Positions 19,573 through 38,559 of a stretch of 64,000 bases of DNA are shown here, in pieces. The notes under the pieces are model-generated. The model saw only the letters and a program-made list of their open reading frames with translations, made no database searches and was not told where the DNA came from. The stretch lies in IMG/VR virus record IMGVR_UViG_3300046777_001387, positions 19,697-83,696 of that record; one strand, written 5' to 3'. The stretch comes from a virus. Positions within the stretch are counted from its first letter, which is position 1, and each line of letters begins with the position of its first letter. Both the position numbers and the translations under genes were made by a program.

Positions 19573-19575
19573 CTA

Positions 19576-20193: not shown

Positions 20194-20205
20194 TAGAGAA
20201 GTAAT

Positions 20206-20538
20206 ATGGCATACGCAGAACTAACAATCGATCAAGGAACAACCTTTGAAACTTCCATTGATCTGACCAACGATGACGGAACCAGCGTTAATGTTGCGGG
20301 TTATGTCTTCAGCGCACAGGTTAGAAAATCATATTATTCTGTGAATCCTACTGCGAATATTACAGTTACTATCACTAATCCTGCTAGCGGCAATGTTAAG
20401 CTTTCGATTGATGCAGCCAATACGGCAAATATTAGGGCTGGAAGATACCTGTACGACGTAAAGATGACCAACACCACCGGTGTTACCACTAGAGTCATTG
20501 AGGGGATTATCACAGTAACTCCTCAGGTATCTAGATGA
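20206..20538 (+). CDS. Small Ig-like fibre adaptor protein (BppU/LtfC-like)
   Basis: 'LTIDQGTTF...GY..SAQVRKSY...AGRYLYDV...RVIEGIITVTP'; overlaps the next collagen gene by 4 nt. Confidence 0.7.
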   Translation: MAYAELTIDQGTTFETSIDLTNDDGTSVNVAGYVFSAQVRKSYYSVNPTANITVTITNPASGNVKLSIDAANTANIRAGRYLYDVKMTNTTGVTTRVIEGIITVTPQVSR

Positions 20539-22298
20539 AGATCGAGATTAAGAACCAAAATTCAGTTGGTTCTGTAAACGTCAATAACACTCCTGAAGTC
20601 GGCAAGGTCTCGATTAAGACCGGTGCTCCCGGACCCGCAGGCTCACAAGGTTCACAGGGCTTCCAAGGTACGCAAGGCTCTCAGGGTATTCAAGGCGCTC
20701 AAGGCGTCCAAGGCGCGCAGGGTGTCCAAGGTGCTCAAGGTGCACAAGGTGCACAAGGTTCGCAGGGACAGCAAGGTGCACAAGGCTTTCAAGGCGTTCA
20801 AGGCGCACAGGGTGTCCAAGGTGCTCAAGGTGCACAAGGTGCGCAAGGTGTACAAGGAGCTCAAGGCGTCCAAGGCGCGCAGGGTTCGCAAGGATTCCAA
20901 GGCGTTCAAGGAGCACAGGGAGTCCAAGGTGCGCAGGGAGTTCAAGGAGCTCAAGGTGCGCAAGGCGTTCAGGGTGCGCAGGGAGTTCAAGGAGCTCAAG
21001 GCGTTCAAGGTGCTACAGGAATTCAGGGCGCTCAAGGTGCACAGGGAGCACAAGGCGCTCAGGGTGTTCAAGGTGCTCAGGGATCACAGGGTTATCAAGG
21101 CGCTCTCAATAGATGGAAAGTCTTAACTGCAAACTATACGGCAGTAGACGGTGACCGTCTAATTGCAGACACTAGCTCTGGCACGTTTACTGTAACTCTA
21201 CCAGCCTCTCCTACTTCTGGTGATTATGTACAGATCTCAGACGGTAATGATTGGAGAACAAATAACCTTCTAGTCAATCCGAATGGATCAACTATTGAGG
21301 GTGTTTCGGATACACTGGCGCTCAATATCAAGGGTGTTACTGTAGAGTGTATCTACGACGGCACGACTTGGGAAGTTACAGCAACTACTGGTGCTCGTGG
21401 TGCGCAGGGTGCAATTGGCGCTCAAGGTGCCCAAGGATTCCAAGGTGTTCAGGGTACTGCCGGTGTTCTGGGTGGAGAAGGTCCGCAAGGTGCACAAGGT
21501 GTGCAGGGCGCCCAAGGATTCCAAGGCGTTCAAGGTACTGCAGGCGCGCAGGGTTCTCAGGGATATCAAGGTTCTCTAGAACGCTGGAAAGTTATAACTT
21601 CAACATATACTGCTTCTGATGGTGAAAGAATTCTTGCTGACACATCAGCAGGAAGCTTTACTCTAACTCTGCCAGCTGCTCCCACTGTTGGAACTTATGT
21701 GCAGATTAGTGATGGCGGCGACTGGTCAATCAACAACCTGACTGTAGGAAGAAACGGATCTTTAATTGAAGGTGTTGCTGATGATGTTCTTCTAGACTTT
21801 AAAAACGTCACAGTAGAGTTTATCTACGACGGCACGACTTGGGAAATTACTGCGACCACCGGAGCCAAAGGTTCTCAAGGATTCCAAGGCGTGCAGGGTG
21901 CAGTAGGTGCACAGGGCGCACAAGGCTCTCAAGGTCCACAAGGCGCTCAGGGCGCGCAAGGAATAATTGGCGCACAAGGCTCTCAAGGATTCCAAGGCGT
22001 ACAGGGTTCTGTCGGAAACCTGATTGAGAACCTATCAGTGGTGCAAACTGCCACTGATTATACCATGACTATCAATGATGATCTGGTTATTGGGACCAGC
22101 ACCAGCGAGATTTTTATTACTCTTCCAGACGTTGCAGCCAGAAACAAAGCCTATTATTTTCAAAATTTCGGCACTGGCTTCATGACTATTCAAACAGTTT
22201 CATCTCAGCTTATAAATAGTGATACCAAGCTAACATTACAGTTCAAGAATAGTTCTGTGAAGCTTATTTCGATAGGAACTAAGTTCCTTATCTTCTAG
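20535..22298 (+). CDS. Collagen-like fibre protein with repeated gp9/gp10-like beta domains
   Basis: Three G-X-Q blocks separated by two ~88-aa 'YTA.DG.R..ADTS.G.FT.TLPA.P..G.YVQISDG.DW..NNL' domains, plus a degenerate C-terminal copy. Confidence 0.85.
   Translation: MKIEIKNQNSVGSVNVNNTPEVGKVSIKTGAPGPAGSQGSQGFQGTQGSQGIQGAQGVQGAQGVQGAQGAQGAQGSQGQQGAQGFQGVQGAQGVQGAQGAQGAQGVQGAQGVQGAQGSQGFQGVQGAQGVQGAQGVQGAQGAQGVQGAQGVQGAQGVQGATGIQGAQGAQGAQGAQGVQGAQGSQGYQGALNRWKVLTANYTAVDGDRLIADTSSGTFTVTLPASPTSGDYVQISDGNDWRTNNLLVNPNGSTIEGVSDTLALNIKGVTVECIYDGTTWEVTATTGARGAQGAIGAQGAQGFQGVQGTAGVLGGEGPQGAQGVQGAQGFQGVQGTAGAQGSQGYQGSLERWKVITSTYTASDGERILADTSAGSFTLTLPAAPTVGTYVQISDGGDWSINNLTVGRNGSLIEGVADDVLLDFKNVTVEFIYDGTTWEITATTGAKGSQGFQGVQGAVGAQGAQGSQGPQGAQGAQGIIGAQGSQGFQGVQGSVGNLIENLSVVQTATDYTMTINDDLVIGTSTSEIFITLPDVAARNKAYYFQNFGTGFMTIQTVSSQLINSDTKLTLQFKNSSVKLISIGTKFLIF
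22211..22218 (+). promoter_or_regulatory. T4-type late promoter
   Basis: Exact TATAAATA, ~90 nt upstream of ORF 22307. Confidence 0.75.
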
Positions 22299-22306
22299 AG
22301 GTTTAA

Positions 22307-22657
22307 ATGTATCTGGAACAGACAAAACTAACCGATTCCACCGGCGCAGTAATTAATCCGGCTACAACTGACGTAAGCGATCAGATTATTCTGCTTCGTA
22401 GAATTATTAAATTGCTCGAGGCGCAGTCGGCTGTCGATCCTCAGCAACGCCAGAGAGTTACGCTTGACGCTATTTCAGCTTCACTAACTCTTGGTGCTGT
22501 CACGACAGTCGGTACTGTCACAACTGTCACAACTGTTACGACAGTTTCTTCAGTAACCAACATCGCAGCACTAAATGGTTGGAACCAGCAGATGTTTGCT
22601 GATCCAGCCAGAAACGCATACAACACTGGCATCAGAGCGCAGTTAACATTCTCTTAA
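22307..22657 (+). CDS. Hypothetical virion-associated protein with a Thr/Val repeat
   Basis: GAGG RBS and TATAAATA upstream; 'VTTVGTVTTVTTVTTV' repeat. Confidence 0.75.
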   Translation: MYLEQTKLTDSTGAVINPATTDVSDQIILLRRIIKLLEAQSAVDPQQRQRVTLDAISASLTLGAVTTVGTVTTVTTVTTVSSVTNIAALNGWNQQMFADPARNAYNTGIRAQLTFS

Positions 22658-22672
22658 TCGGAGTTTATATCA

Positions 22673-25600
22673 ATGTCACTATCGGCAAATAAGCTAATCA
22701 AACAAGTCGATCTACCAGTATGGGAGTGGACGCGCCCTCTTCCTGTTGCTCCGACAGCAGGTTTATCTTCTTCTTGCGTAGCTGATGCACCAGACTTTAA
22801 TCCGATCTCTGGTCGTTACATCTATATGCTTCTGAACGCTACCAACTTCTGGCGTTATGACACGGTTTCAGACACATACATGCAGATGGCTTCTCCCGGC
22901 ATTACGCCACTGTCTGCTACGAATATGCGTTTTGCCGGCGCTGCTGGGTATTATGGTCGCACGATTGCAGCAACATCGACTACGATGGACACTGGTCTTC
23001 CGTTCGGAAAACAGGCTATTGGATACAGAATTCGTATTATCTCGGGCAAGGGTGCAGGTCAGGAGCGCATTATCACTAATGTGAGCGACCCTATTGTTGC
23101 TGATTTTGGCGGCGCAACTTCTACTACGACATTCAGCTTGACTGATACCAATAAAAACTGGGGTGTAGTTGGAGCTACAAACAACGTTAATAACTGGATC
23201 GGTTATGTTATCAGAGTTATTGGCGGTACAGGCTTCACACAGGTTCGTAAGATTCTCCATAACAGTGCTACAGTAATTTCGGTGGCTGATACTAACATCT
23301 ATTCGCACGATACTTGGTCGTTACCAATGTCGCCAACAGCAGGTACTCCAGGATGGACCTCTCCTGGTACTGGCGCGATTTACAATATTGAATACTCAAC
23401 GATCACTGTAGATACTGCTTGGGACGTAACACCTGATAACACCTCTAGATACGTTATTCAGTCAGGTGGTATTTGGTTGGCTTCTGGCGCAACTGTTGGT
23501 AACGGTACTGTGACTCTGCAGTACTACAGCGTTCTAGAGGATATTTGGTACGCCAAGACATCTGTTAACAACATTATCCCAACTAACTTGACTGATCTGT
23601 GTATTGAGAGATTAACAGAAAACTCTACTCTCTGGTACACCGGATTAGCAACATCCGGAAGTACAACTACTCTAGTTGACGCTAACGCCAGCTGGACTGC
23701 AAATCAGTGGAGTGGTTATGAGACCACTATTTGGTCGGGAACTGGAAGAGGTCAAATAGCTGTAGTTGCCAATAATACAGGCAACACACTAACATTCACC
23801 ACTACACTAGATACTGCTCTAGACGCAACCAGTAGATATAACATTACTGGTTATGATGGTGGAATCTTCACATCCACTGCTGGTAGAATTGTATCAGATT
23901 CTTCAAAGAACTGGGCAGTGAACCGTTGGACAAACTATGCTGTGCGAATTGTCTCCGGCACCGGCGTCGGACAAACTAGACAAATCCTTTCCAATGGATC
24001 CGACAGCCTAGTTGTTTACGACTGCTGGAATGTTCAGCCAGATAACACTTCCAAGTACATTATCCAAAGCAACTCACAGGATATGTTCTTGGCTATCGGT
24101 GGTGGACAGCATACATATATGTATCGTGTCGGTGACACGGATATGCTCAGCCCAGCTAGAATCCTCGATGAGGGTATCAATGCTATAGCTTGTGCGATGC
24201 TGACTGATGGCACAAGTACCGCAACTCATGAAATCTATGAGCAAAAGCCTATTGCTATCAGTGCAATCTCTGGCACTACAACTATCACAGCTACTACTGT
24301 ACACCCCCATCAGCTAAAGGTTGGGCAGTGGGTTTCTATTCGTGGCGTCACTTCGGCAGCGGCTGACGTATACAACGTAACTGGTAAGGTTCAGATCACT
24401 TCTGTTCCTTCGCTGACAACGTTCACATATACTCCATTTGCTGCTGGTACTGGCACATATCAATATTCCAACAATATTGCGCTTGGTACAACTACTCTTA
24501 TTGATGCTGCCAAGTATTTCGCTGATCTGGCTACTGGCGGTTCTACGACTACTGTAACGTTCAGCAGAGCAACTCCGTCGAATATCAACGGATGGTATGT
24601 GTACGGTACCAATATTGCTGATGGTGCACAGATTGTAAGTGGTGCTGGAACAACAACTCTGACGCTAAACTTGACCGGTGCAGGCACTCCTTCGGGAACT
24701 ATTATCATCACTAAATGGCCAAGACCTGTGACAGCAACTTATGCTTCTGGTGGTGGTGCTGGTGTGTTCTCGGTTACACTTTCTGCGCCAATTCCAACCT
24801 ATGTTAAAGGATGGTTGGCTACAGGAACTAACATCGGTCTGAGTGCAACAGTTACTGGCGGCGAAGGCACTGCCACTCCGTTATTCTCAATTCAGTGCTC
24901 GGGCACTCCTTCTGGAACAATTACCTTTAGCTGCCCAACAAATAACTTGTTGCCAGTTACAGCGACATATAGCTCCGGATCGGGAACTTCGATTACTCTG
25001 AGCGGTAATGTGCCAAGCTATATTCGTGGTTGGCTAGTTTGCTGCTCGAACATTGCTAACGGAACTACTGTTACTGGTGGAGAGGGTACTTCTACAGTCA
25101 CGCTATCAACGCCAACAGCAGGAACTCCTTCTGGTACGGTAATATTCTATCCACCACCAATAGCGCCTGTTTTGCATTATGGAACAACTGGTATTCCAGC
25201 TTTATCTGCTACAGGCATGGTTTCTACGGGTCAAGTTTTCCAAATGGTTGCTCAGAATGCAACTAATCCGACCATCATGACTTCTATTACAGCGTCAACA
25301 ACCCCAACTGCTGGCGTCTCGAAGTATGTGCTCACCAGAAGATATGCGTTTGGACACGCATATGAAGGGCATAATATCAATTATCTTGATGGAATTGCGT
25401 TTGGTACACAGTCGACAACGACTCTAGTTGATACAAATGCTTTCTGGGCAACTGCTACAGGGTCTGGTGGATCTGCTGGTGCAACATCGTTCACTCTGTC
25501 TGCTCCAGGATCACCAATCCATAATGGATGGTACGTTTCAGGAACAGGTATCCCACTAGGCGCAAGAGTGGTGAGTGGTGCTGGCACCACTTCGATCACC

Positions 25601-26236
25601 ATTGACTTGCCGTTAACTGGTGTTGTTTCTGGTACGATTACGTTTACTGCTTGGTCTCAGTCTCTAGTTAACAGACGTCTTCGTATTTTCTCTGGAACTG
25701 GCTTCAACCAAGATCTGGTCATTACTGGCGTAACACCTGCAACAGGAACTATTACGTTTGGTGCGGCAACTGCTCCGGGTTCTGGTGTTTCTACCTACAG
25801 TATTCTACCGTTTGGTGCAACGTCAACTGGTCTTTCTCTGCAGTGGGTGTCGGACTCATCAACTATGACGAACAAGGGAAGATACCTGTTCAGATTCTAC
25901 GGTGGTGGTAATACTCTAATTGATAGATACGATATCACTACCGATAGAGTCATGCAGGTAAGAACAACCCCATCAACGGAAACCTTGAGCTCTGGTTCGA
26001 TGTATGCATACGACCAGCTAGACAGAATCTATTTCACCAAGGACGTCACGAACCGCATCTACTATCTAGATGTAAATACTATGACATTGTATGGTTCTGG
26101 TATGTTCCCATACGTTGCTGGTACTGCAGGTATCGGTAATATGATGGAAATTTTCAAGACTGCTGATGGATTGAAGTATCTGTGGGTCAATCGTAAGGCT
26201 CAGGTTGAAACGTTCAGACAGCTGCTGTTCTATTAA
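22673..26236 (+). CDS. Large beta-rich virion protein (kelch/propeller-like termini with inserted repeat domains)
   Basis: GGAG RBS; 'YIY...FWRYDT..D' and 'IDRYDIT...YAYD..DRIYF' blade-like motifs; internal 'RIISG.G.GQ.R.I' and 'GW.V.GT.I..G' repeats. Confidence 0.75.
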   Translation: MSLSANKLIKQVDLPVWEWTRPLPVAPTAGLSSSCVADAPDFNPISGRYIYMLLNATNFWRYDTVSDTYMQMASPGITPLSATNMRFAGAAGYYGRTIAATSTTMDTGLPFGKQAIGYRIRIISGKGAGQERIITNVSDPIVADFGGATSTTTFSLTDTNKNWGVVGATNNVNNWIGYVIRVIGGTGFTQVRKILHNSATVISVADTNIYSHDTWSLPMSPTAGTPGWTSPGTGAIYNIEYSTITVDTAWDVTPDNTSRYVIQSGGIWLASGATVGNGTVTLQYYSVLEDIWYAKTSVNNIIPTNLTDLCIERLTENSTLWYTGLATSGSTTTLVDANASWTANQWSGYETTIWSGTGRGQIAVVANNTGNTLTFTTTLDTALDATSRYNITGYDGGIFTSTAGRIVSDSSKNWAVNRWTNYAVRIVSGTGVGQTRQILSNGSDSLVVYDCWNVQPDNTSKYIIQSNSQDMFLAIGGGQHTYMYRVGDTDMLSPARILDEGINAIACAMLTDGTSTATHEIYEQKPIAISAISGTTTITATTVHPHQLKVGQWVSIRGVTSAAADVYNVTGKVQITSVPSLTTFTYTPFAAGTGTYQYSNNIALGTTTLIDAAKYFADLATGGSTTTVTFSRATPSNINGWYVYGTNIADGAQIVSGAGTTTLTLNLTGAGTPSGTIIITKWPRPVTATYASGGGAGVFSVTLSAPIPTYVKGWLATGTNIGLSATVTGGEGTATPLFSIQCSGTPSGTITFSCPTNNLLPVTATYSSGSGTSITLSGNVPSYIRGWLVCCSNIANGTTVTGGEGTSTVTLSTPTAGTPSGTVIFYPPPIAPVLHYGTTGIPALSATGMVSTGQVFQMVAQNATNPTIMTSITASTTPTAGVSKYVLTRRYAFGHAYEGHNINYLDGIAFGTQSTTTLVDTNAFWATATGSGGSAGATSFTLSAPGSPIHNGWYVSGTGIPLGARVVSGAGTTSITIDLPLTGVVSGTITFTAWSQSLVNRRLRIFSGTGFNQDLVITGVTPATGTITFGAATAPGSGVSTYSILPFGATSTGLSLQWVSDSSTMTNKGRYLFRFYGGGNTLIDRYDITTDRVMQVRTTPSTETLSSGSMYAYDQLDRIYFTKDVTNRIYYLDVNTMTLYGSGMFPYVAGTAGIGNMMEIFKTADGLKYLWVNRKAQVETFRQLLFY

Positions 26237-26247
26237 GGAGTTATGAG

Positions 26248-26424
26248 ATGACGCTCAATGAGATTCTAGTTATTCTTCAAAATAGAATGGTTGCTCTGAC
26301 CGAAGCCAGAAAGGGTGCTGTGGCATCCGGAGACCTTGAGAGTGTCGTTCGTATTGACGGCGACATTCTCACCACTCTAACAAGCATCGAAAGAATCGCA
26401 ACTACCATTAACGAAACCCAGTAA
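26248..26424 (+). CDS. Small helical hypothetical protein (58 aa, absent from the ORF track)
   Basis: AAGGAG RBS at ~26235-26240; ATG at 26248 to TAA at 26424; MTLNEILVILQNRMVALTEARKGAVASGDLESVVRIDGDILTTLTSIERIATTINETQ; fills the intergenic gap exactly. Confidence 0.8.
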   Translation: MTLNEILVILQNRMVALTEARKGAVASGDLESVVRIDGDILTTLTSIERIATTINETQ

Positions 26425-26426
26425 TT

Positions 26427-27971
26427 ATGCCGACTAGTATTCAGGATTATTTGTCGAGCAGCCTTCCTTTAGGTCCGCAAGGATCTCAAGGAGTGCAAGG
26501 TGCTGTCGGTCTGCAAGGACCACAGGGTGCACAGGGAGTACAGGGAGAGATTGGCGCTCAGGGCGCTATTGGAGCACAAGGTGCAGTAGGAGCTCAGGGT
26601 GCAGCGGCAGCTGTAGGTGGTTCCACAACACAACTGCAGTATAACAACGCTGGAGTTTTTGCTGGCGCTGCTGGTCTGACAACTACTGGAACAGAACTGA
26701 ATATTGTCAGTGGCGCAAAGACTACTGATACACCTGCGCTGGATGTCAGTCAGACTTGGAGCAATGCTTCTGCGACATTTGCAGGATTTAGATTAAACGT
26801 CGCAGACTCTGCAAGCTCTTCTGGTTCATCGCTAACTGACTTACAAATTGGCGGAGCTAGCAAATTCAGAGTATATAAGTCAGGAACAATTGAACTTGGT
26901 GATATGAGCTCAACTGGCACATATTTACAGCTGACATCAACAGCTATTTCTACCGGCAGAGGAGCAAGTGCTGGTTATCCTCAATTAGATATTAATGTGC
27001 CAACAAACACCAATGGTTTGGGGCTTAATGGTCGCCTCAGAGTTTCTTCCAGTGCTATTAATGCCATGGGTCCGTTTTATCTTGCCATCAGTAATAATTA
27101 TGGGACCGAAGTTGCACTGCAGGCTGATGCTTCTAATATTTTCGCTCAGCGTAACGCGACCAATGCACAAACATTTAGAGTTTACAACACATTTACAGAT
27201 ACAGGTAATTATGAAAGGATTTCTTTTGGATGGGGGTCGAATGAATTTGTTATTGCTGCTGAATCTGCTGGTAGTGGAGTTACAAGACCATTTAAGCTTG
27301 TAAACAATAATGCCCAACAGTGGTTATCTATAGGTCAGGGGTGCATTAATGGTGGATATTCAAATGAAACTTCTGCTAGAAATGGTATAACCTTAAATGG
27401 TCCTGGATTTATAGGATATGCTTCAGGAGGTGAACATTGGTTTAGTGCTGGATCTGGTAGTGGTAGTATAAGTAGTCCACCATCAGCTGGTAATGCGGTT
27501 ATAATCTCTCCCTTTGCTGTAACTAATAATACATTGACGCACAGATTTATGCCATCTAAAAAGGATCGTGGTGGTGCATATACTGGTAATGGTCATAATC
27601 TTGAAGTTGCTGGTGGTGAAGCGTCTTCTTCAGGAACAAACAGCTATGATGGTGGGCATTTATACTTGGATGGTGGAAGAAAAACTGGCGCCAATGCCAA
27701 TGGTTCTGTTTTTATTGGAACTATTAGCACCGCTAACGTTAATATCAGTAGCGTAATAACTGTCACCGAATCTAGCCTAAGAGTTGGAACTTCGTCTTCT
27801 TCACTAGTGGGCTTCTGGAATGCAACTCCTATTGTACAGCCAACCACTGGAGTTGCAGCTGCCACGATTGTGACTAATAGCGGAACAGGCGTAAATAATG
27901 CAACAACCTTTGATGGCTACACATTAGCGCAGGTTGTCAAAGCTCTCAGAAATGCTGGACTATTGGCATAA
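26427..27971 (+). CDS. Fibre protein A (short collagen neck, beta-rich body, helical C-terminus)
   Basis: N-terminal 'SSLPLGPQG', then 'GGSTTQLQYNNAGVFAG', and C-terminal 'FDGYTLAQVVKALRNAGLLA'. Confidence 0.8.
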   Translation: MPTSIQDYLSSSLPLGPQGSQGVQGAVGLQGPQGAQGVQGEIGAQGAIGAQGAVGAQGAAAAVGGSTTQLQYNNAGVFAGAAGLTTTGTELNIVSGAKTTDTPALDVSQTWSNASATFAGFRLNVADSASSSGSSLTDLQIGGASKFRVYKSGTIELGDMSSTGTYLQLTSTAISTGRGASAGYPQLDINVPTNTNGLGLNGRLRVSSSAINAMGPFYLAISNNYGTEVALQADASNIFAQRNATNAQTFRVYNTFTDTGNYERISFGWGSNEFVIAAESAGSGVTRPFKLVNNNAQQWLSIGQGCINGGYSNETSARNGITLNGPGFIGYASGGEHWFSAGSGSGSISSPPSAGNAVIISPFAVTNNTLTHRFMPSKKDRGGAYTGNGHNLEVAGGEASSSGTNSYDGGHLYLDGGRKTGANANGSVFIGTISTANVNISSVITVTESSLRVGTSSSSLVGFWNATPIVQPTTGVAAATIVTNSGTGVNNATTFDGYTLAQVVKALRNAGLLA

Positions 27972-27980
27972 GGTAATTAA

Positions 27981-30900
27981 ATGGCTGTAAGCATTCAAAC
28001 AATCACACAAAGCAGTTTGCCTGCAGGACCACAAGGTGTGCAGGGTCCTCAAGGACCAGCGGGAGCATCTTCTACCCCCGGTGGTAATAACACAGAACTA
28101 CAGTACAATAATAACGGTGTATTTGCCGGCGCTTCTGGTCTGACCACTACAGGGACAGAACTGAACATTGCTTCTGGCATCAAGACGCTGAATACTTCTC
28201 CGGCAATAAACGTTTCTCAAACTTGGGATAATTCTGGAAACACATTCACTGCAATCAGATTAAATGTCACTGACACTGCAAGCGCCACTGGTTCTTTGCT
28301 ATTTGATGGTAGGGTGGATAATGCCAGCGTGTTTACCGTCGACAAATCTGGTGGCGTTTATTCTTTGCTTGGAGCAATTTTAGGCAATAACAAATGGTCA
28401 TTAGCACAAGCTAGATTTGCTGGAAATGCTTCTTATTATATTGGTTGGGCAAGCACGAGCACAGTCAGTAACTCCACCACACCAGATACTCGATTGTATC
28501 GCGATGAAGCGTATACCATAGCCCAGCGAAATGCCACAAATCCTCAGAGTTTTCGAGTTTATAAAACCTTCACAGATGCAGATAATTATGAAAGAGGTTT
28601 CCTGCGTTGGAACGGTAATATTTTTGAAGTTGGTGACGAGGGAGCCGGCTCAGGTGTTTCTAGACAGCTGCGCCTAGTTGCAGCAAATGTCAGTTTCTCT
28701 ACCAATATCGAGGGCGGAAATTCCAGAACAAATCCAAACCTAATCAATTCGGCGTTCGCAATCACAAATACTGGTGCGTTTAACGCTAGCAATATGATCG
28801 GGTTGGTTAGTCGAGGTGAAAGTGCATATAATGCAGTTGGAGTTATTGGGTATGCTGCTAACTCCAGTACTTGGACATATAATACAACTGGATTAATGGG
28901 AGTCGCTGTTCGAAACTCTACAAGATCAGCGGTTGGCGTTTATGGTGCGATACAAAGCACCAATATTTTACCTGATTATGAGCACTATTCCCTATCTGCT
29001 GCTATTTTTGATAATGGTGGTATAACAGGCGCAAATATTATTGAAGGCAGAAGTTCGGGGACATCTAGATTTTTGGTTAGTGGAGTTGGTGCAGTTACTG
29101 CAAATAATGGCGCGATTACTGCTTCTACACCAGCATTAAACTTATTACAAGAATGGAATAATTCCGGCGTTGCGTTCACTGGATTAAAATTTAATGCTAT
29201 AGATACAGCAAGCGCAAGTGGTTCACTTTTATTAGACGTGCAGCTTGGTGGTACTAGCAGATTTAAGGTTTCTCGCACTGGCGGAATTGCTACTGGTAAT
29301 CCTTCTGGTTATAATCTAGATCTTGGTTTTACAAACAATAACTACATAACTGGTTTTTATCAAACTTCTAATCGTGGATCAATTGAGTTCGGTGCGGGTG
29401 CTGGTACAGATCTTGTTTGTAGAGCAGGAGCCTCAGGAGGAGGCACTGGAACATTTAAGATAACTGCTTATGGTGGAGTTACAGAAGTTGTCAATGATGG
29501 TAACCCCCAAATATTTCGCATCTATAACACTTGGACAAACTCATCAGACCAATTCGAACGTGGACATATTCGATGGAACTCTAACGTTCTGCAAATTGGA
29601 ACTGAGAAGGGTTCGGTCTCTGGAACGGCTCGACCACTAGAACTTCAAACTGATGGGATCACCAGAGCTACTATAGAAGCTGCAGGCACATTCAGAACTA
29701 ACACACAACCAGTATATGTCAACGCCACGTATAACACTGGAATTTCTTCTAGTGCTGATGGATATGTTCTCTCAATTTCTACCAGATACGGTACTCATAT
29801 CGACACTTCGCTTGGGCGTATCAATCTTTATTCCATTGTAAAATTTGGTGCTGCCAATTATTCACCCGGAATAACTGTTGCTCCATATGCGACTGGTCTA
29901 TCTACAGGCGATCCGATTTATGGTGGTCTATTAAACGCTTCTTCATCTACCTCTAGTCTATGGCTTTATGGTAAATATGGTGGAACTTATGCAGCTTCTA
30001 CTGGATACCATAATGGAACAGGAATTTCCATTTGGTGTGGTTTTGGTGCACAACCAACGGATGCTAATGCCAATGGCGGAAATGCTGGCAACTTCGATGT
30101 TTGGCTAAATGCTGGTGGAGCTGGTACAGGAACAGGTGTTTCTGGAAATCGTGGAAAGCTGCGTGTACTTAATGATTCTACTGACCTTGAAGTGTTCTCT
30201 GTTAACCAGCTCGGTAATGTTGTAATTACATCGGCTATTACTGGCGATAACGGAACTCTGACTTCTTCTTCACCAATTTTAGATTTATCACAAACATGGA
30301 ATGATGCAGGAACCGCATTCGTTGGTTTGCGATTTAATGTTGTTCGTACTGCTTATGGCGCGAGCAGCAGATTACTGTCTCTTACGGCTGATTCGGGCGA
30401 TCGCTTTTTTGTAACCAGCACAGGAGAAGCCACACTTCTTGGAACTCTGACCGCAGGAGCGTTTACAACCACAGGAACAGTTACTGCCGGAACAGTACTC
30501 GTAACTGGAAGCTCAAATTATGTTGCATTAAACGGCAGTTCATTTTTGCAGCTTTCTGATGGAACTTATCCTGCTCGAATGCAGGCTGATGGAAACGGGT
30601 ATAATGTCTCTTTGCGAAATGGAACGAATCCACACAGTTTCTTAGTATACAACACATTTGTCAACTCTACCAACTATGAGCGCGGATTCCTTAAGTGGGA
30701 CAGCAACACCTTCAAGATCGGCACTGAGAAAGGCAGCGGCGGAGGGACATCGCGTGCGCTGGAGCTGCAGACAGATGGTGTGACGCGAGCAGTGTTTTCT
30801 ACCGCACCTTCAGGCACAATTCCCATTGCTCGCTTTACTGGCAATTCTGGGGCGCATATTTCTATCGAAAATACTAGCGCCACAAGCTCTGGTAATGGTG

Positions 30901-31382
30901 CGTTTTGTTTTCTTGTCTCAAATCCCCCAAGCGGCGCAATGGCAAACGGCGATCGTATTGGTGGGTTTGTTTTCGCTGGCAATTCTGCCACCGGCGTCTC
31001 TAGAAACAGCGCGCTGATTGCTGCCTTTGCCACGCAGGCATGGAACGACACCACGCCGCAGGCGGGAGCCGAGCTTCGGTTTGAGACCACTAATAACGGT
31101 ACTATAACTAGAACGGTGAAGCTAACGTTGGGCAGCGCCGCAACCTTTGCTGACGCGGTCAACATCGCAGTCGGCACCTCTACCGGCACAAAGATTGCTA
31201 CAGCAACCTCCCAGAAGCTGGGCTTCTGGAATGCAACTCCAGTAGTTCAACCAACAACAGCAGTAACAGGAGCAGAACGTGTTGCCGGTGGTGGCGCAAC
31301 AGTAACTGCCACTGATACATTCGATGGATACACAATCGCACAAGTAGTCGCAGCACTGCGTAGTGCTGGACTATTAGCTTAA
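27981..31382 (+). CDS. Fibre protein B, paralog of 26427..27971 with three module repeats
   Basis: Same N- and C-terminal motifs as fibre A; three copies each of the 'SQTWN...F.G.R.N' and 'F.VYNT.....YERG...W' modules. Confidence 0.8.
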   Translation: MAVSIQTITQSSLPAGPQGVQGPQGPAGASSTPGGNNTELQYNNNGVFAGASGLTTTGTELNIASGIKTLNTSPAINVSQTWDNSGNTFTAIRLNVTDTASATGSLLFDGRVDNASVFTVDKSGGVYSLLGAILGNNKWSLAQARFAGNASYYIGWASTSTVSNSTTPDTRLYRDEAYTIAQRNATNPQSFRVYKTFTDADNYERGFLRWNGNIFEVGDEGAGSGVSRQLRLVAANVSFSTNIEGGNSRTNPNLINSAFAITNTGAFNASNMIGLVSRGESAYNAVGVIGYAANSSTWTYNTTGLMGVAVRNSTRSAVGVYGAIQSTNILPDYEHYSLSAAIFDNGGITGANIIEGRSSGTSRFLVSGVGAVTANNGAITASTPALNLLQEWNNSGVAFTGLKFNAIDTASASGSLLLDVQLGGTSRFKVSRTGGIATGNPSGYNLDLGFTNNNYITGFYQTSNRGSIEFGAGAGTDLVCRAGASGGGTGTFKITAYGGVTEVVNDGNPQIFRIYNTWTNSSDQFERGHIRWNSNVLQIGTEKGSVSGTARPLELQTDGITRATIEAAGTFRTNTQPVYVNATYNTGISSSADGYVLSISTRYGTHIDTSLGRINLYSIVKFGAANYSPGITVAPYATGLSTGDPIYGGLLNASSSTSSLWLYGKYGGTYAASTGYHNGTGISIWCGFGAQPTDANANGGNAGNFDVWLNAGGAGTGTGVSGNRGKLRVLNDSTDLEVFSVNQLGNVVITSAITGDNGTLTSSSPILDLSQTWNDAGTAFVGLRFNVVRTAYGASSRLLSLTADSGDRFFVTSTGEATLLGTLTAGAFTTTGTVTAGTVLVTGSSNYVALNGSSFLQLSDGTYPARMQADGNGYNVSLRNGTNPHSFLVYNTFVNSTNYERGFLKWDSNTFKIGTEKGSGGGTSRALELQTDGVTRAVFSTAPSGTIPIARFTGNSGAHISIENTSATSSGNGAFCFLVSNPPSGAMANGDRIGGFVFAGNSATGVSRNSALIAAFATQAWNDTTPQAGAELRFETTNNGTITRTVKLTLGSAATFADAVNIAVGTSTGTKIATATSQKLGFWNATPVVQPTTAVTGAERVAGGGATVTATDTFDGYTIAQVVAALRSAGLLA

Positions 31383-31392
31383 GGAGATTTTA

Positions 31393-31728
31393 ATGGCTAC
31401 GTTTAATCTAAGAATCACTGGCGTCTCGGCTTATCCAACAGTGGATAATCTAGAGAATGTTGTATTTGATATTCACTGGGCATATGAAGGAACAGACGGC
31501 ACCTTCTCAACTGCAATGTCTGGCACTACTATGGTTCCAGCCCCAAGTGCAGAAAATTTTGTTCCCTTCGATCAGCTGACAGAACAGATGGTCAAAGACT
31601 GGGTTATTGCCTTCACAGACGCCCAGACTTTCACCAATTTTGAGAATCTAATGACTGATTGGCTTGCTGCCCAGCATAATCCTCCCGTCGTGTATCCTCC
31701 ACTCCCTTGGGCGACGGCAAACACTTAA
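31393..31728 (+). CDS. Putative fibre assembly/accessory protein
   Basis: AAGGAG RBS; 'NVVFDIHW...FVPFDQLTE..V..W...PPLPW' pattern typical of small fibre-adjacent phage proteins. Confidence 0.7.
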   Translation: MATFNLRITGVSAYPTVDNLENVVFDIHWAYEGTDGTFSTAMSGTTMVPAPSAENFVPFDQLTEQMVKDWVIAFTDAQTFTNFENLMTDWLAAQHNPPVVYPPLPWATANT

Positions 31729-31739
31729 TTGATCGATCG

Positions 31740-31747
31740 CATAAATA
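31740..31747 (+). promoter_or_regulatory. T4-type late promoter (CATAAATA)
   Basis: Intergenic, directly upstream of the giant collagen gene. Confidence 0.75.
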
Positions 31748-31794
31748 AAGGGGGTCTGATCAGACCCCCTAGATCTTTTAAGAGTTAAAAAAGA

Positions 31795-34700
31795 ATGTCT
31801 ATTACCCTCGAAGATATCCTCCAAAGTAGCCTTCCCGTCGGTCCACAGGGCATTCAGGGAGCTCAAGGCAATCAAGGCGTTCAAGGTTCTCAAGGCAATC
31901 AAGGAGTTCAAGGTTCTCAAGGTCCCCAAGGCGCACAAGGTGTGCAAGGAGCCCAAGGCGTTCAGGGATCGCAGGGTGTACAAGGTTCGCAAGGAGTTCA
32001 AGGCGCACAAGGTGTGCAAGGAGCCCAAGGCTACCAAGGATTTGATGGTCTTAAGGGATGGACTTTAAAGACTTCTAATTATAACGCTTCTAGTAATGAT
32101 CGCATTATTGCGGATTCTAGCGGCGGCTCTTTTGTAATCTATCTTCCTACTACTCCTCCTGTTGGCTCATATGTTCAAATTACTGATGGAGCTAACTGGA
32201 ATCTCAATAGTGTCACGGTAAATTCTAGCGGAACAATTATCGAATCTGGTTTCGATGAGGTTATTCTAGATGCTGCCGGCATAACCACTGAGTTCATTTA
32301 TACTGGAACAAATTGGCAAGTCACCTCTACGCTAGGTGCAATGGGTTCCCAAGGATTTCAAGGCACTCAAGGAGCAACTGGTGCACAAGGCTCTCCCGGT
32401 CCTCAAGGTGCGCAAGGTCTCACGGGCGATAGATATGCCACTACCAGTTCTAGCACAAATACTATCGGAACTGGTTCTAAGACATTCACAGTAGAAACTG
32501 GACTTTCTTACACTCCTGGTCAAGCTGTAAAAGTTTATTATGATATTTCTAATTATATGGACGGCACAGTCGTCTCATATAATTCTGGGACTGGAAGTCT
32601 GGTATTAAGTATTTCGGCAGTGACCGGAACAGGAACATATAGTTCTTGGGTTGTTAATCTTTCCGCTATTACCGGCGCACAAGGTTCACAAGGTATTCAA
32701 GGCGTCACTGGTGCACAAGGCGTTCAAGGTTCTATCGGAGCACAGGGCGCACAGGGTTCTCAAGGAACACAAGGTCCCCAAGGTGCAGCAGGTGTGCAAG
32801 GCGCTCAGGGTGCATCGGGTGCACAAGGTGCTCAGGGTGCTGCTGGTACTCAAGGTGCCCAAGGTTCTGTGGGCGCACAAGGTGCTCAAGGATCAGTGGG
32901 TGCTCAGGGTGCTCAGGGTGCTGCTGGGACTCAAGGCGCACAGGGGACGACAGGAGCACAAGGAGCGCAAGGTTCTGCTGGAGTTCAGGGTGCACAAGGT
33001 GCTCAGGGTATTCAAGGCGATCAAGGCGCAGTTGGTCCACAAGGTTCTGCTGGTCCACAAGGTGTGCAAGGTTCAACTGGAGCGCAAGGTGTACAGGGAT
33101 CTGTAGGAGCTCAAGGCGCGCAAGGTTCAGAAGGTGCCCAAGGATCTGTTGGTGCGCAAGGTGTGCAAGGAACACAAGGTCCTCAAGGTGCAACAGGAGC
33201 GCAAGGTTCCGTTGGTGCTACCGGCAGTGAGGGTGCTGTCGGCGCTCAGGGTGCACAAGGTTCTGTTGGAGCACAGGGTTCTGTCGGAGCTCAAGGTGTT
33301 CAGGGATCTGTTGGAGCTCAAGGTGCGCAAGGTTCTGTTGGTGCACAGGGTGAACAAGGTGTCACCGGTGCGCAAGGTTCTGTTGGTGCACAAGGATCAG
33401 TCGGAACTCAAGGAGCACAAGGTGCTGCTGGAGCTCAAGGTTCTGTTGGTGCACAAGGATCTGTTGGAGCGCAAGGCGCACAGGGTGCTCAAGGTGCTGC
33501 TGGAGTGCAAGGCGCTCAAGGTGCAGTAGGTGCGCAAGGTACAGTTGGAACCCAAGGCGCACAGGGTGCTGTAGGTACTCAAGGATCTGCTGGAGCACAG
33601 GGTGCTCAAGGATCAGTTGGTCCACAAGGAGCGCAAGGCGCTACAGGAGCCACGGGCACTCAAGGTGCACAGGGCGCTTCTGGTGTACAAGGTGCTCAAG
33701 GATCTGTCGGAGCACAAGGTTCTGTCGGAGCACAAGGTGCAATTGGTCCGCAAGGCGCACAAGGTTCCACTGGAACAACTGGTTCTCAGGGTCCACAAGG
33801 AGCCCAAGGTGCCGCAGGTGTGCAAGGCGCTCAAGGTTCTGCCGGCGCACAGGGATCAGTAGGTGCTCAAGGCTCAGTTGGTCCGCAAGGTGCACAAGGT
33901 GCTACTGGAACAACTGGAGCACAGGGATCAGTTGGCGCGCAAGGTGCCCAAGGTGCTAATGGAGTTCAGGGCGCGCAAGGTGCTGTCGGAGTTCAGGGTG
34001 CACAGGGTGCTACTGGAACAACTGGAGCGCAGGGATCAGTTGGTCCACAAGGTGCACAGGGTTCTGTTGGAGCTTCTGGCGCACAGGGATCAGTTGGTGC
34101 TCAAGGTGCAGTAGGTGCACAAGGAGCACAAGGCGCACAAGGCGCTACCGGTGTACAAGGTGCACAGGGTTCTGTTGGAACACAAGGATCAGTCGGAGCA
34201 CAAGGATCAGTTGGTCCGCAAGGCGCTCAAGGATCTATCGGTGTACAGGGAGCACAAGGTGCTCAAGGCGCAGCTGGTGTTCAAGGCGCACAAGGCGCTA
34301 CTGGAGTTCAAGGTGCTCAAGGTGCAGTTGGTCCGCAAGGTGCACAGGGTGCTAATGGAGTTCAAGGTGCTCAAGGCTCAGTTGGTCCACAAGGCGCACA
34401 GGGCGCTGCTGGTGTTCAGGGTGCAGTAGGCACTCAAGGTGCGCAAGGTGCTTCTGGAGTTCAAGGCTCAGTCGGTCCACAAGGAGCACAGGGTGCTGCT
34501 GGAGTTCAGGGTGCTCAAGGTGCGGTGGGCGTACAAGGTGCAATTGGTCCACAAGGCGCACAAGGTGCTGCCGGAGTTCAAGGTGCACAGGGTGCTGCTG
34601 GTGTGCAGGGAGCACAAGGTGCTGCCGGTGTTCAGGGTGCTAATGGAGTTCAAGGTGCACAGGGTGCCATAGGCGTTCAAGGTGCACAAGGTGCTAATGG

Positions 34701-35883
34701 AGTGCAAGGCGCTCAAGGTGCCATAGGCGTTCAAGGTGCACAAGGTGCTGCTGGATTCCAAGGTGCCCAAGGCTCAGTCGGTCCACAAGGCGCACAAGGC
34801 GCACAAGGTGCTGGTGGAGTTCAAGGTGCGCAAGGAGCACAAGGTGCTGCTGGAGTCCAAGGTGCTCAGGGAGCACAAGGCGCTAATGGAGTTCAAGGTG
34901 CACAAGGTGCTGCTGGGATACAGGGAGCACAAGGTGCTGCTGGGGTACAAGGCGCTCAAGGAGCACAAGGTGCTGCTGGCGTACAAGGCTCAGTAGGCGC
35001 GCAAGGTGCAATTGGTCCACAAGGCGCACAAGGTGCTGGTGGAGTTCAAGGTGCGCAAGGAGCACAAGGTGCTGCTGGAGTTCAAGGTGCCCAAGGTGCT
35101 CAGGGAGCAGTAGGAGTCCAAGGCGCTCAGGGTGCTGCTGGTATACAAGGTGCTCAAGGAGCACAAGGCGCTAATGGAGTTCAAGGTGCTCAGGGAGCAC
35201 AAGGTGCTGTGGGCGTTCAAGGCGCGCAAGGTGCTGCTGGAGTCCAAGGCGCTCAGGGAGCACAGGGTGCAGTAGGTGTTCAAGGCGCGCAGGGTGCGCA
35301 AGGTGCCGCAGGTGTTCAGGGCGCTCAAGGTGCTCAAGGTGCAGTAGGTGTGCAAGGTGCTCAAGGAGCGCAGGGCGCACAAGGAGCACAGGGTGCAGTA
35401 GGTGTTCAAGGCGCTCAAGGTGCTCAAGGTGCTGCTGGCGCACAAGGACAATCTTTTGTGGGGGCTCAAGGAGCGCAGGGCGCACAAGGAGCACAAGGAG
35501 CGCAGGGTTCTGTCGGAGCACAAGGTGCCCAAGGATCTCAGGGTCCTGCAACTTTCCGAGTTAGCTCCACAACCTCTATCGCATCTCCTCTAGCATGGAA
35601 TAGTGACAACTTTGAAATGTATGCAGCAACTGCCCAAGCAGTTGCTCTGACCATTAGTGCTGATGCTGGAACGCCAACTAATGGTCGCAGAATTATCTTC
35701 AGATTCAAGGACAATGGAACTGCAAGATCTCTAAACTGGACAACTGGAACGTCCAAATCATTCAGAGCAGTTGGTGCAACTCTCCCAACCACAACTGTAG
35801 TCAATAAGACCGTATACATTGGTTGCATATATAACGCTGCAGACGACAGATGGGATGCTATTGCAGTATCGCAAGAAGCTTAA
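31795..35883 (+). CDS. Giant collagen-like fibre protein
   Basis: 'SSLPVGPQG' N-terminus, one gp9/gp10-like domain, a long Gly-X-Y tract, and a C-terminal globular domain '[20 protein letters not shown]...[18 protein letters not shown]'. Confidence 0.9.
32674..35550 (+). repeat. 9-nt periodic Gly-X-Y coding repeat (mainly GGN GCN CAR)
   Basis: 32674-35454 is 2781 nt = 309 triplets in phase, followed by a Phe-Val interruption and 10 more triplets. Confidence 0.95.
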
Positions 35884-35892
35884 TGACATAAT

Positions 35893-38559
35893 ATGGCTAC
35901 CTATAGAAAATTCGTAGCAATCACCGCTAATGGAACTTGGACAGTTCCTACCGACTGGAGCAATACAAGTAACAGAATTGCTTGTATTGGTGCCGGTGGA
36001 AACGGTGCAGCTGTTGCCGACGGATCAGGTTCCGGTGGTGGTGGAGGTGGAGCATATTCTGCTGTTCCCAACGTTTCACTGACTCCAGGAGCCACAGTTT
36101 ATGTGACTATTGGTGCGGGTGGAGGTGGTGCTACTGGCGCAGATACTTGGGTCAATTGGGTTTCTAATACTGCTCCAGCTGCTACAACTAATGGCGTTCT
36201 TGCTGACGGTGGTCTTAACGGTTCAGGTCTGACTGGTGGTGCTGGTGGAACAGTAGCCAACTCTGTTGGAGATGCATCTCTAGAATTTGCAGGCGGTTCT
36301 GGTGGCAACGGTAACAATACTGGCGACACCGGTGGTGGCGGTGGTGGAGCAGCAGGTCCCGGTGGTGCTGGCAAAGACGGTGGTACTGGTGGTACTGGTG
36401 CTGGCGACGGCGGCGGTGGCGGTGGTGGTGCAGGCGGTGGTTCATCAACTGCTGGTTCTGGCACAACCACAGCAACTGGCGGTGCAGGTGGTAACGGTCC
36501 TCTAGGAACGGGCAGCGGCGCTGGCGCAACTGGCACAGGTACAGGTACTGCTGGCGGTGCTGGTACTGGTGCCGGTGGTGGTGGCGGCGGTGGTACTGCT
36601 GGTGTTGGTGGTGCTGGTGGATCTGGCAGCGACCTTGGTACTATTAGCAGCGTTTCTTATGGTGCTGGCGGCGGTGGTGGTGGTAATGGCGACAACAACG
36701 CAGCCACAGGAACTCCCGGCGCTGGTAACGGCGGTCTTTATGGTGGTGGAGGTGGAGGTCGCGAAACTGGTGGTACTGGTGGATCGGGCGCGGCTGGTGT
36801 TGTTTGGATTTGGTATGATGTTATTATCGATAGCCTATACTGGATTGGTGGTTCTGGCAACTGGGACACGACTACAACTTCTAAGTGGTCGACCACTTCT
36901 GGTGGTACTGCCAACACTGCTGTTCCTGACGAGTTCTGCGACGTTATCTTTAATGCAGCGTCAGATGCAGGCTCTGCATTCACAGTGTCTATATTAGCAG
37001 GCGCTAACTGCAAGAATCTAACTGTATCTGGTCTAGATCAGACAATGAACCTGTTCCAAGGCGCGAATACTCTTAACGTCAATGGATCTCTAGTTTTCTC
37101 TGGAACAAACCAGACATATTCACTGACCACAGGAGTGACTAGATTCACGTCTCCTTCTTCAGTGAATATTGACACTGCAAATATTGCATTCGGAAATGTG
37201 GTGTTTGTGGGAAGCGGAACGTTTACTCTTAGCAATACGCTCAACACTGCCTTCGGTACGATTACACATTTAAATGGCAACATCAACGCCAACAATCGTA
37301 ACGTGAGTGCCGGCGCGTTCTTCTCAAACACAACCAATACCAGATCTATCACAATGGGTTCTGGTACTTGGGAAGTAAGATCAAACTCCGATTGCTGGGA
37401 CGTTGTTGGAACCAACCTAACGGTAACACCAAACACATCCACGATTTATTTGTCGAATACTAGTTCAGACACAAGAACATTCGCTGGTGGAACTGAGCCA
37501 TACTACAACTTACGAATTGGTGGTCCTACCGGAAGTTCAGTCACTATTGTTACAGGGAATAATACCTTTAATGAGATATCTAGCGATAAAACTGTAGCTC
37601 ACACAATTCAATTCGAAAGCGGCTCTCTAACAAAAACCAACAGTTTCATAATTAGTGGATCATCAGGAAATCTTGCTAAGATAAACTCAGCGCCTGGAAC
37701 TTCTCAAGTCACACTTTTGCAATCCAAGTTTGCAACTAACGCTAGCGGTTCTACTGTGACCGCAACCTTTGATAACGCAACTACTGCAGGTTCTGTCATT
37801 GTTGCATTTCCTGTTGGTGATGATGCTTCTTCGGCTACGTTGTCCTCAGTAAGCGACAATAGAAGCGGTTCATACACACAACAATTCGGAGACATCATCA
37901 GCAGTTCGCGTTTCGTTCTTGCAGCATTCACAAATATTGCTGGTACAAGAGGAACTGCGCACAGTGTCACTGCGACATTTACAGCTGCTGTAACTTTTAC
38001 AGGATTGATGTTGGCAGAGTTTTCCGGGGTGAATACATCTAGTATTCTAGCAGGATCAGGAAGTGCCGAGGCACCATCAGACTACGCAGTACCGTACCAA
38101 GTAATCGGTCCTTCTGTCACCCCAACTGCTAATGGTATCCACATAGCTGCATTCTTCCAAGACGGTGCCTCTAATAGTGCATTCGTTGGATCGTCTGGAT
38201 GGACAGAACAATTTGAATTGCCACTAGGACAATTTGCTGGTGCAGGGTTATATACAAGAACTGCTACTAATGGTGCGGCGCAGCAACTTACAGTCGATGT
38301 AACAAATAACGTTGTTGACGTTGGTGGTATTATTCATCTGGTGATTCGAGAAGGAGTTGGCGCTTCCGGACATACTCTAGAGAAAACTGGTGGCGGTACC
38401 ATTTCAGTTAACTATCTAGACATAGCCAACTCCTCAGCAACTCCGAGTTCAACTTGGTATGCGTATAATTCAGTAGATTCAGGAAGCAATACTGGTTGGA
38501 TTATTTCAACAGGTGGTGCAGCCACTGCTGGAAACTTCTTTATGTTGCTGTTTGCTTGA
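35893..38559 (+). CDS. Glycine-rich putative adhesin/fibre-associated protein
   Basis: N-terminal ~310 aa with many GGGGG runs (polyglycine-II-type), followed by 'YWIGGSGNWD...WSTTSGG' and a beta-solenoid-like region. Confidence 0.75.
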   Translation: MATYRKFVAITANGTWTVPTDWSNTSNRIACIGAGGNGAAVADGSGSGGGGGGAYSAVPNVSLTPGATVYVTIGAGGGGATGADTWVNWVSNTAPAATTNGVLADGGLNGSGLTGGAGGTVANSVGDASLEFAGGSGGNGNNTGDTGGGGGGAAGPGGAGKDGGTGGTGAGDGGGGGGGAGGGSSTAGSGTTTATGGAGGNGPLGTGSGAGATGTGTGTAGGAGTGAGGGGGGGTAGVGGAGGSGSDLGTISSVSYGAGGGGGGNGDNNAATGTPGAGNGGLYGGGGGGRETGGTGGSGAAGVVWIWYDVIIDSLYWIGGSGNWDTTTTSKWSTTSGGTANTAVPDEFCDVIFNAASDAGSAFTVSILAGANCKNLTVSGLDQTMNLFQGANTLNVNGSLVFSGTNQTYSLTTGVTRFTSPSSVNIDTANIAFGNVVFVGSGTFTLSNTLNTAFGTITHLNGNINANNRNVSAGAFFSNTTNTRSITMGSGTWEVRSNSDCWDVVGTNLTVTPNTSTIYLSNTSSDTRTFAGGTEPYYNLRIGGPTGSSVTIVTGNNTFNEISSDKTVAHTIQFESGSLTKTNSFIISGSSGNLAKINSAPGTSQVTLLQSKFATNASGSTVTATFDNATTAGSVIVAFPVGDDASSATLSSVSDNRSGSYTQQFGDIISSSRFVLAAFTNIAGTRGTAHSVTATFTAAVTFTGLMLAEFSGVNTSSILAGSGSAEAPSDYAVPYQVIGPSVTPTANGIHIAAFFQDGASNSAFVGSSGWTEQFELPLGQFAGAGLYTRTATNGAAQQLTVDVTNNVVDVGGIIHLVIREGVGASGHTLEKTGGGTISVNYLDIANSSATPSSTWYAYNSVDSGSNTGWIISTGGAATAGNFFMLLFA

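Follow-up and report, generated by a model that had tools for sequence, protein, structure and literature searches.

Collagen-like phage fibres have been known since 1998. BclA of the Bacillus anthracis exosporium, C1q and collagens VIII–X share a plan in which an N-terminal anchor is followed by a variable collagen stalk that sets the length of the filament and by a trimeric jelly-roll knob that nucleates folding; the BclA stalk is Thr-rich (GXT), glycosylated and at most about 90 triplets long. We analysed a 1362-residue fibre protein (P0001) encoded at 31795–35883 on the + strand of a 64,000-nucleotide stretch of the virus record IMGVR_UViG_3300046777_001387 (hereafter the window). The window makes up the 3' part of an IMG/VR contig of 83.7 kb from a freshwater metagenome, with a CheckV completeness of about 47%. 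P0001 resembles BclA and C1q in having a short putative N-terminal anchor, a collagen stalk and a C-terminal knob, the knob being a trimer in our model.

The plan of P0001 is also like that of the prophage proteins EPclA–D of Escherichia coli O157:H7, which consist of an N-terminal phage-fibre domain, collagen and a C-terminal trimerisation domain (PMC3368898). A trimeric state, a collagen circular dichroism (CD) signal and a rod shape have been seen experimentally for the EPcl proteins, and the presence of a C-terminal trimerisation domain beside phage collagen was shown experimentally for EPclA (PMC3368898). Their flanking domains (PfN, PCoil and PfC) are unrelated to those of P0001, and their collagen is short, with 48% Pro and 36% Asp/Glu at X and 31% Lys/Arg at Y, whereas P0001 has 5% Pro at X and no Lys/Arg. 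In a survey of viral collagens, X positions were 22% Pro and 35% Asp/Glu and Y positions 38% Lys/Arg and 13% Gln (PMC3368898). KGD accounts for 13% of viral triplets, and it has been proposed that KGE/KGD salt bridges generally help long collagens to fold (PMC11923368). P0001 and its many relatives from uncultured phages form a large class outside this charge-rich picture.

We consider P0001 to be a virion fibre of the collagen type, made of three identical chains, in an uncultured T4-like myovirus from fresh water, with the folding, docking and function proposed here, at a probability of roughly three in four. The analysis shows sequence features, modular architecture, genomic context, conservation patterns and a trimer model that passed its controls; we infer triple-helix formation, the direction of folding, the docked end, the virion site and the function. 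The C-terminal beta-sandwich knob would fold and trimerise first, setting the register of the three chains. The helix would then zip from the C- to the N-terminus, which is the accepted folding route of collagens (PMC11923368), through 10 and 309 triplets, a beta-barrel bead, 11 triplets, a beta-sandwich bead and 25 triplets. Finally, a 15-residue N-terminal tag would dock the finished fibre in a virion socket that two tag-bearing paralogues would also use. The product would be a thin, semi-flexible filament of about 0.3 µm with the knob at its far end.

The Gly-X-Y array of the fibre protein

A script count over the open reading frame (ORF) at 31795–35883 gave four in-phase Gly-X-Y segments with 355 triplets in total, all on the + strand. 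The third of these is an uninterrupted run of 309 triplets (residues 294–1220; 32674–35454), and it is the only such run, in agreement with the triplet number given in the initial annotation. That annotation had placed the run at 32674–35550; its start and its triplet count hold, and its end takes in a two-residue Phe-Val break (G-Q-S-F-V-G; 35455–35460) together with a fourth segment of 10 triplets (residues 1223–1252; 35461–35550). The break, close to the knob, is likely a kink or hinge. Two shorter segments had not been described: the first comprises 25 triplets (residues 16–90; 31840–32064) with Gln at Y in 22 of the 25, and the second 11 triplets (residues 181–213; 32335–32433).

X positions of the 309-triplet run were occupied by Ala (183, 59%), Val (45), Ser (42), Pro (16) and Thr (15), and Y positions by Gln (201, 65%), Val (44), Ala (26), Thr (16), Ile (7) and Asn (6). 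All 16 Pro residues (2.6% of X and Y positions) lie within GPQ and none is at Y; charged residues are limited to one Asp and three Glu, with no Lys or Arg, and Thr fills 31 of the 618 X/Y positions (5%). The earlier description of the run as Gln-rich, Pro-poor, almost uncharged and free of Lys/Arg was thus borne out by the counts. The most frequent triplets were GAQ (122), GVQ (43), GSV (29), GAA (22) and GPQ (16). From the first to the last third of the run GSV fell (13, 14 and 2), while GAA (5, 4 and 13) and GVQ (8, 12 and 23) rose, a shift between early and late vocabulary that had been pointed out before and that fits separate expansions. If triple-helical, the 927 residues at 0.286 nm each would measure about 265 nm, consistent with the animal-collagen length first proposed.

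The protein matched Pfam Collagen (PF01391) at 506.3 bits (E = 8.5e-156; gathering cut-off 27.2) and the PHROG tail-fibre families 6320, 819, 5073, 28263 and 1806 with E values from 6e-254 to 2e-140. The PHROG scores are mostly carried by the collagen repeats and so say little beyond "phage collagen".

Run length and composition were scored in bead-domain relatives, in word-index matches of 749–2384 and 2385–5000 residues (the best matches to the collagen region), in IMG/VR loci and in the results of a HMMER search that was exhaustive over 1.84 billion representatives. In at least 13 retrieved proteins, P0001 included, and in many IMG/VR fibres, Gln occupied no less than 50% of Y positions, and Pro and charged residues each amounted to 5% or less. 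The initial annotation had regarded this chemistry as anomalous and a special stabiliser as required, a view that the same make-up in so many proteins does not support. Fibres of this Gln type from uncultured phages numbered in the dozens, and long ones included P0237 (3351 residues, 499 triplets, Gln at 77% of Y, no Pro), L086 (2568 residues, 456 triplets), L117 (2004 residues, 428 triplets) and L103 (417 triplets). P0237, L086, L117 and P0148 are like P0001 in having Gln at 50–80% of Y, Pro at or below about 3%, charge at or below about 5% and the same beta-barrel bead, and their total collagen content equals or exceeds that of P0001. In these four and in L103, however, bead domains split the collagen into segments of at most 189 triplets, as opposed to one run of 309 in P0001. 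The longest single run among the Gln-type, Pro-poor, uncharged helices found was that of P0001, followed by 163 triplets in P0148. The near-longest relative, P0124, has 264 triplets.

P0001 does not hold the record for non-animal collagen, because the HMMER search retrieved two metagenomic Thr-type proteins (P0359 and P0361) with 377 and 317 unbroken triplets (GST/GAT/GPT) and almost no charge. Animal fibrillar collagens reached an uninterrupted length of 337–341 triplets in the match lists, against 309 in P0001. They carry a COLFI C-propeptide, 16–24% Pro, 22–31% charged residues and hydroxyproline, none of which P0001 has; the Pfam scan of the fibre protein gave no match to COLFI (PF01410). 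P0001 accordingly stands at the extreme of a class of phage collagen fibres that is abundant but little studied, and does not represent a new kind. It is notable as the longest uninterrupted Gln-type helix found here, within a large chemical class that is experimentally untouched.

A separate observation concerns codon usage. Of five collagen-coding stretches at 17077–35883, four use CAA for 69–91% of their Gln, compared with 31% in 14 non-collagen genes; in the fifth, the short stretch of ORF 26427, CAA makes up 50% of 10 Gln codons. In the non-collagen genes CAA reached only 42% before a codon starting with G, so that avoidance of G runs explains the bias only in part.

Knob, beads and N-terminal tag

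The C-terminal 110 residues (35551–35880, + strand) were predicted to form an all-beta knob (AlphaFold 2 pLDDT 96.9), for which we propose the role of trimerisation and registration nucleus and of distal tip. Three copies were modelled as a homotrimer with an ipSAE of 0.97, compared with 0.02 for the best of three controls, a pLDDT of 97 and a contact agreement between runs of at least 95%. The same mark was attained by 20 of 30 true pairs and 1 of 23 single chains when the method was calibrated; since two copies were used there, these counts apply only roughly to a trimer. Likeness to solved trimeric knobs may account for part of this result. The invariant or near-invariant residues K86, Y89, N95 and D102 lie in or beside the modelled interface, suggesting that trimerisation is what is conserved.

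About 80 fibre proteins in IMG/VR end in this knob, at 44–81% identity, on shafts that are very different and mostly not collagen; it also occurs in 236 phage records, 232 of them from Mycobacterium phages. One homologue is gp111 of mycobacteriophage Cali (Bixzunavirus), a protein of 272 residues without collagen that is encoded beside a head-decoration gene and whose C-terminal ~100 residues are 47.5% identical to the knob. The knob has no Pfam family, and Pfam C1q gave no match; a sequence search of the PDB returned carbohydrate-binding modules at best, with E values of 0.03 or worse. Its best structural matches in the PDB were trimeric phage domains: first the knob of the Pa223 capsid spike gp52 (Z 8.3, root-mean-square deviation [rmsd] 2.9, 99 residues aligned), followed by a KP1 baseplate protein (Z 8.1), 6o38 (Z 7.5) and the gp10-like domain of CBA120 TSP4 (residues 78–181; Z 7.1–7.5). 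Foldseek comparisons with T4 gp9 (1qex) and gp10 (2fl8) gave E values of 0.2 and 1.2, respectively. The Pa223 gp52 knob was termed a canonical TNF fold by its authors (bioRxiv 10.1101/2025.06.11.659172), and TNF/C1q entries were absent from the top 50 structural matches of the P0001 knob. Like the fibre proposed for P0001, Pa223 gp52 (PDB 9ny6) follows a plan of short N-terminal attachment peptide, fibrous middle and C-terminal knob, as a homotrimer. It differs in its triple beta-helix shaft of about 10 nm and its location at the capsid three-fold axes, and the sequence identity is 10%.

Two bead domains interrupt the collagen. Bead domain 1 (residues 91–180; 32065–32334, + strand) is probably a beta-sandwich: it had sub-threshold Pfam matches to phage depolymerase and StcE beta-sandwich domains, it was 30% identical to a protein of Synechococcus phage S-BM3 annotated as "putative hoc protein", and its fold model was poor (pLDDT 40–60). 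Bead domain 2 (residues 214–293; 32434–32673, + strand) was predicted to be a small beta-barrel with an AlphaFold 2 pLDDT of 94–98, and occurs between collagen segments of phage fibres at 77 IMG/VR loci. Its best PDB match was a baseplate domain of phage JBD30 (8rk3_o; rmsd 2.8, 76 residues aligned), at a Z of 8.2 that is in the range of a common fold.

The first 15 residues (31795–31839, + strand), directly followed by GPQG, form a tag that we propose as the virion-docking peptide. The same motif opens ORFs 26427 and 27981, two upstream paralogous fibre genes (514 and 1133 residues; 26427–31382, + strand) in which the tag is likewise followed by a short collagen segment. The two paralogues also share a C-terminal motif, ...FWNATP.VQPTT...FDGYT.AQVV.ALR..GLLA, which recurs at L163:10483–11769 of a related uncultured phage, G001.

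A regular-expression search for the tag over all fetched loci retrieved one further phage contig, that of G001, and a tblastn search of the 24-residue N-terminus against isolated phages gave no match. The fibre island of G001 is syntenic, and its tag gene (L163:5562–10076, − strand; 1504 residues) occupies the same position. It encodes G-T-Q collagen alternating with G-T-D/N/L, in blocks of 82 and 158 triplets separated by a globular domain of about 590 residues, and its C-terminus is unlike that of P0001. The two proteins, which are positional orthologues, agree in tag, island position and presence of a collagen shaft and differ in the rest: behind what would be a constant anchor, shaft and tip have been swapped in their entirety. 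Phage receptor-binding fibres usually combine a conserved anchor with a distal part that can be exchanged, and an N-terminal peptide kept constant while the rest varies typically marks the virion-proximal end. For phage biology, P0001 would add to the T4-like particle a fibre of about 0.3 µm with a conserved 15-residue anchor tag and exchangeable shafts and tips.

Virion site, helix stability and array length

The 355 triplets (355 x 3 x 0.286 nm) would give a fibre of about 305 nm, to which three small domains are added. A 954-residue protein encoded on the contig upstream of the window (L164:10135–12999, − strand) adjoins a gp26-like baseplate hub and has a lysozyme-like domain at residues 646–814, which makes it a candidate for a fusion of tape measure/gp29 and cell-wall hydrolase. 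With a tape measure of 954 residues the tail would be no longer than about 140 nm, and the fibre would be about twofold the tail length. The suggestion in the initial annotation that the fibre may be longer than the tail is therefore probably right, and the fibre is probably longer than the whole particle. In dilute water, so long and thin a filament would let the particle catch hosts within a wider radius, and the fibre most likely makes the first, long-range and reversible contact with the host.

Several points weigh against this reading. The array length rests on one short-read assembly. At Z values of about 8, the structural matches of the knob are barely above the background of the aligner. 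The knob is also unusually conserved for a receptor-binding tip (46–81% identity across unrelated fibres), and its role may be limited to nucleating folding or to offering another protein a docking site. Such conservation is more readily expected of a folding nucleus than of a receptor-binding tip, which would vary; binding of a common ligand, or docking of another protein as gp10-like domains do, is possible. Imino acids make up 1.7% of residues in the 309-triplet run, to our knowledge far below the content of any collagen of measured stability, and the run has no KGE/KGD salt bridges. Finally, the capsid-spike structural match and the position of Cali gp111 beside a head-decoration gene make a location on the head or neck possible.

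In that case the same protein could form a whisker on the neck, with a function analogous to that of T4 fibritin, or a fibre on the head; projecting from the collar or capsid, it would serve as a long environmental sensor or primary adhesin, which we regard as possible but doubtful. The gene lies in the T4 slot of gp9–gp12 and wac, upstream of gp13 and gp14, and to the resemblance of the knob to the distal knob of the Pa223 spike (bioRxiv 10.1101/2025.06.11.659172) and to the gene context of gp111 may be added the weak likeness of bead domain 1 to the "putative hoc protein". All these resemblances are weak or positional, however. The island adjoins baseplate wedge genes and holds Peptidase_S74 C-termini typical of tail fibres, and a tag common to three paralogues suits multiple baseplate sockets. 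T4 fibritin (wac) has an alpha-helical coiled-coil shaft and a foldon, whereas P0001 has a Gly-X-Y shaft and a 110-residue all-beta C-terminus with neither coiled coil nor foldon; only the position upstream of gp13 is similar.

For the collagen fibre proposed here, helix stability would require no exotic stabiliser, and the additional source of stability called for in the initial annotation, such as Gln ladders, would not be needed. Host–guest work by Persikov, Ramshaw and Brodsky reportedly places Ala at X and Gln at Y among the most favourable non-imino, uncharged residues, and Val, Ala and Ile at Y somewhat lower; Xu et al. in 2010 reportedly found a Gln-rich collagen of Clostridium perfringens to melt near 37 °C. 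The melting temperature of bacterial collagens levels off beyond about 150 residues (PMC7824840). This plateau, an attached trimeric nucleus and cool fresh water suggest that ordinary physics would be enough for a stable helix: favourable Ala at X and Gln, Val or Ala at Y, the great length and the anchoring by a trimeric knob would act together, and a modest melting temperature would suffice in fresh water. As to the missing salt bridges, a 2026 preprint reports that KGE gives little stabilisation in extended helices. Since the 927 residues include only 16 Pro, prolyl isomerisation should not limit the rate of zipping.

Alternatively, the helix might be stable only after modification (glycosylation of Thr/Ser, or modification of Gln, by host enzymes or enzymes encoded off the contig) or through lateral bundling. 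The very low imino content and the lack of charge pairs speak for this, glycosylation of Thr is an accepted stabiliser of some bacterial collagens (PMC11923368), and a contig of about 47% completeness leaves room for further enzyme genes; on the 83.7-kb contig itself, the Pfam profiles of 2OG-Fe(II) oxygenase (PF13640) and glycosyltransferase 2 (PF00535) gave no match. Classical prolyl 4-hydroxylation, however, would have no substrate, since no Pro is at Y, and hydroxyproline is thereby excluded by the sequence. Thr is also scarce, at 31 of 618 X/Y positions. Unmodified recombinant EPclA was stable at 42 °C, albeit as a Pro- and charge-rich protein (PMC3368898). The occurrence of the same composition in many unrelated phage genomes points to an intrinsic property and not to a dedicated enzyme, and we consider dependence on modification or bundling unlikely.

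The strongest form of our reading is a homotrimeric helix of about 0.3 µm that folds without appreciable imino acids, charge pairs or modification, helped only by Ala-X/Gln-Y triplets and the knob, and that acts as a fishing line longer than the particle; this we put forward tentatively, at less than even odds. If true, it would be a counter-example to the need for Pro/hydroxyproline, salt bridges or glycosylated Thr in long triple helices, and a minimal collagen that zips without prolyl isomerisation. The 927 unbroken residues on a compact, modelled trimerisation knob would be a convenient natural test of a helix of Gln and Ala only. Neither this biophysical point nor the one for phage biology is a new principle.

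The length of 309 triplets might also be an assembly artefact, produced by joining segments from several collagen genes or strains or by inflating a shorter array. TRF detected only imperfect repeats in the array DNA, with unit matches of 57–84%; the longest exact internal repeat was 64 bp, and 53 of about 4000 31-mers recurred, the 31-mers of the gene being nearly all unique. The coding DNA of 210 pairs of identical 12-residue peptides was 84% identical on average. Identical peptides from diverged DNA indicate that most of the array is old as DNA and conserved as protein. In the last third there are also a few perfect copies of 64 bp, which suggest recent duplications.

Reads were checked with Logan contigs (k = 31) from one freshwater metagenome data set filed as two runs, which is probably the source sample. 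The data set contained 95% of the sampled words of the gene, and independent k = 31 contigs tiled the whole gene with zero mismatches at a depth of 13–23x, compared with about 17x on the flanks. A single contig piece covered 32820–34563, and no one contig spanned the whole gene. Over a (GAQ)n-coding stretch at 35268–35424 the depth rose to about 108x, against the same ~17x on the flanks, indicating that other collagen genes in the sample share these words.

An artefact would be compatible with the lack of a spanning contig, with this depth spike, with several alternative joints at low depth and with the outcome of IMG/VR searches using the 888-residue downstream neighbour and the upstream DUF7936 protein, which yielded no close strains for a comparison of triplet numbers, G001 being a more distant syntenic phage. 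Tiling at flank-like depth, in contrast, makes assembly inflation unlikely, so that the array length is supported, not proven; the near-unique 31-mers, a reading frame and Gly phase intact across all junctions and the smooth change of triplet vocabulary along the gene argue in the same direction, and we judge an artefact very improbable. That the Gly-X-Y region is a disordered flexible spacer or another Gly-dependent fold without a triple helix has the least to commend it: scarce Pro implies a low polyproline-II propensity, but a strict three-residue spacing of Gly, kept up through 927 residues with no indel, would be superfluous in a spacer, the choice of Ala for X and Gln for Y is selective and not random, a modelled trimerising knob is attached directly, and the family-wide design is one of collagen segments punctuated by small trimer-compatible beads.

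Phage and gene neighbourhood

The large ORFs of the window are all on the + strand. PHROG scans gave the gene order gp6, gp7-like, gp8, two large phrog_358 proteins and the fibre island (17077–42471), followed by gp13, gp14, gp15, gp17 terminase, gp18 sheath, gp19 tube, gp20 portal, scaffold and gp23 major capsid protein. The fibre gene is thus located inside the virion structural module, between the baseplate genes gp6–gp8 and gp13–gp23. The major capsid protein shares no more than 58% identity with its counterparts in T4-like cyanophages, pelagiphages and Methylophilales phage Melnitz, and megablast of the flank against phage records gave no match. The phage is a myovirus of a new freshwater lineage of the T4 superfamily.

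G-X-Q collagen is also encoded by four other ORFs of the island, the last ORF of which ends in a C-terminal endosialidase-chaperone domain (Peptidase_S74) typical of tail fibres. The ORF next to the fibre gene (35893–38559, 888 residues) has a Gly-rich, polyglycine-like start; it matched no Pfam or PHROG family, and a pattern search found no IMG/VR relative. Between the DUF7936 gene and the collagen gene lies a strong terminator-like hairpin, AGGGGGTCTGATCAGACCCCCT, followed by a T tract (31749–31770, + strand), and ahead of the hairpin is CATAAATA (31740–31747, + strand), one base off the T4 late-promoter box. Transcription of the collagen gene may reach it by read-through or start at a late promoter of its own; the hairpin would then form part of the leader.

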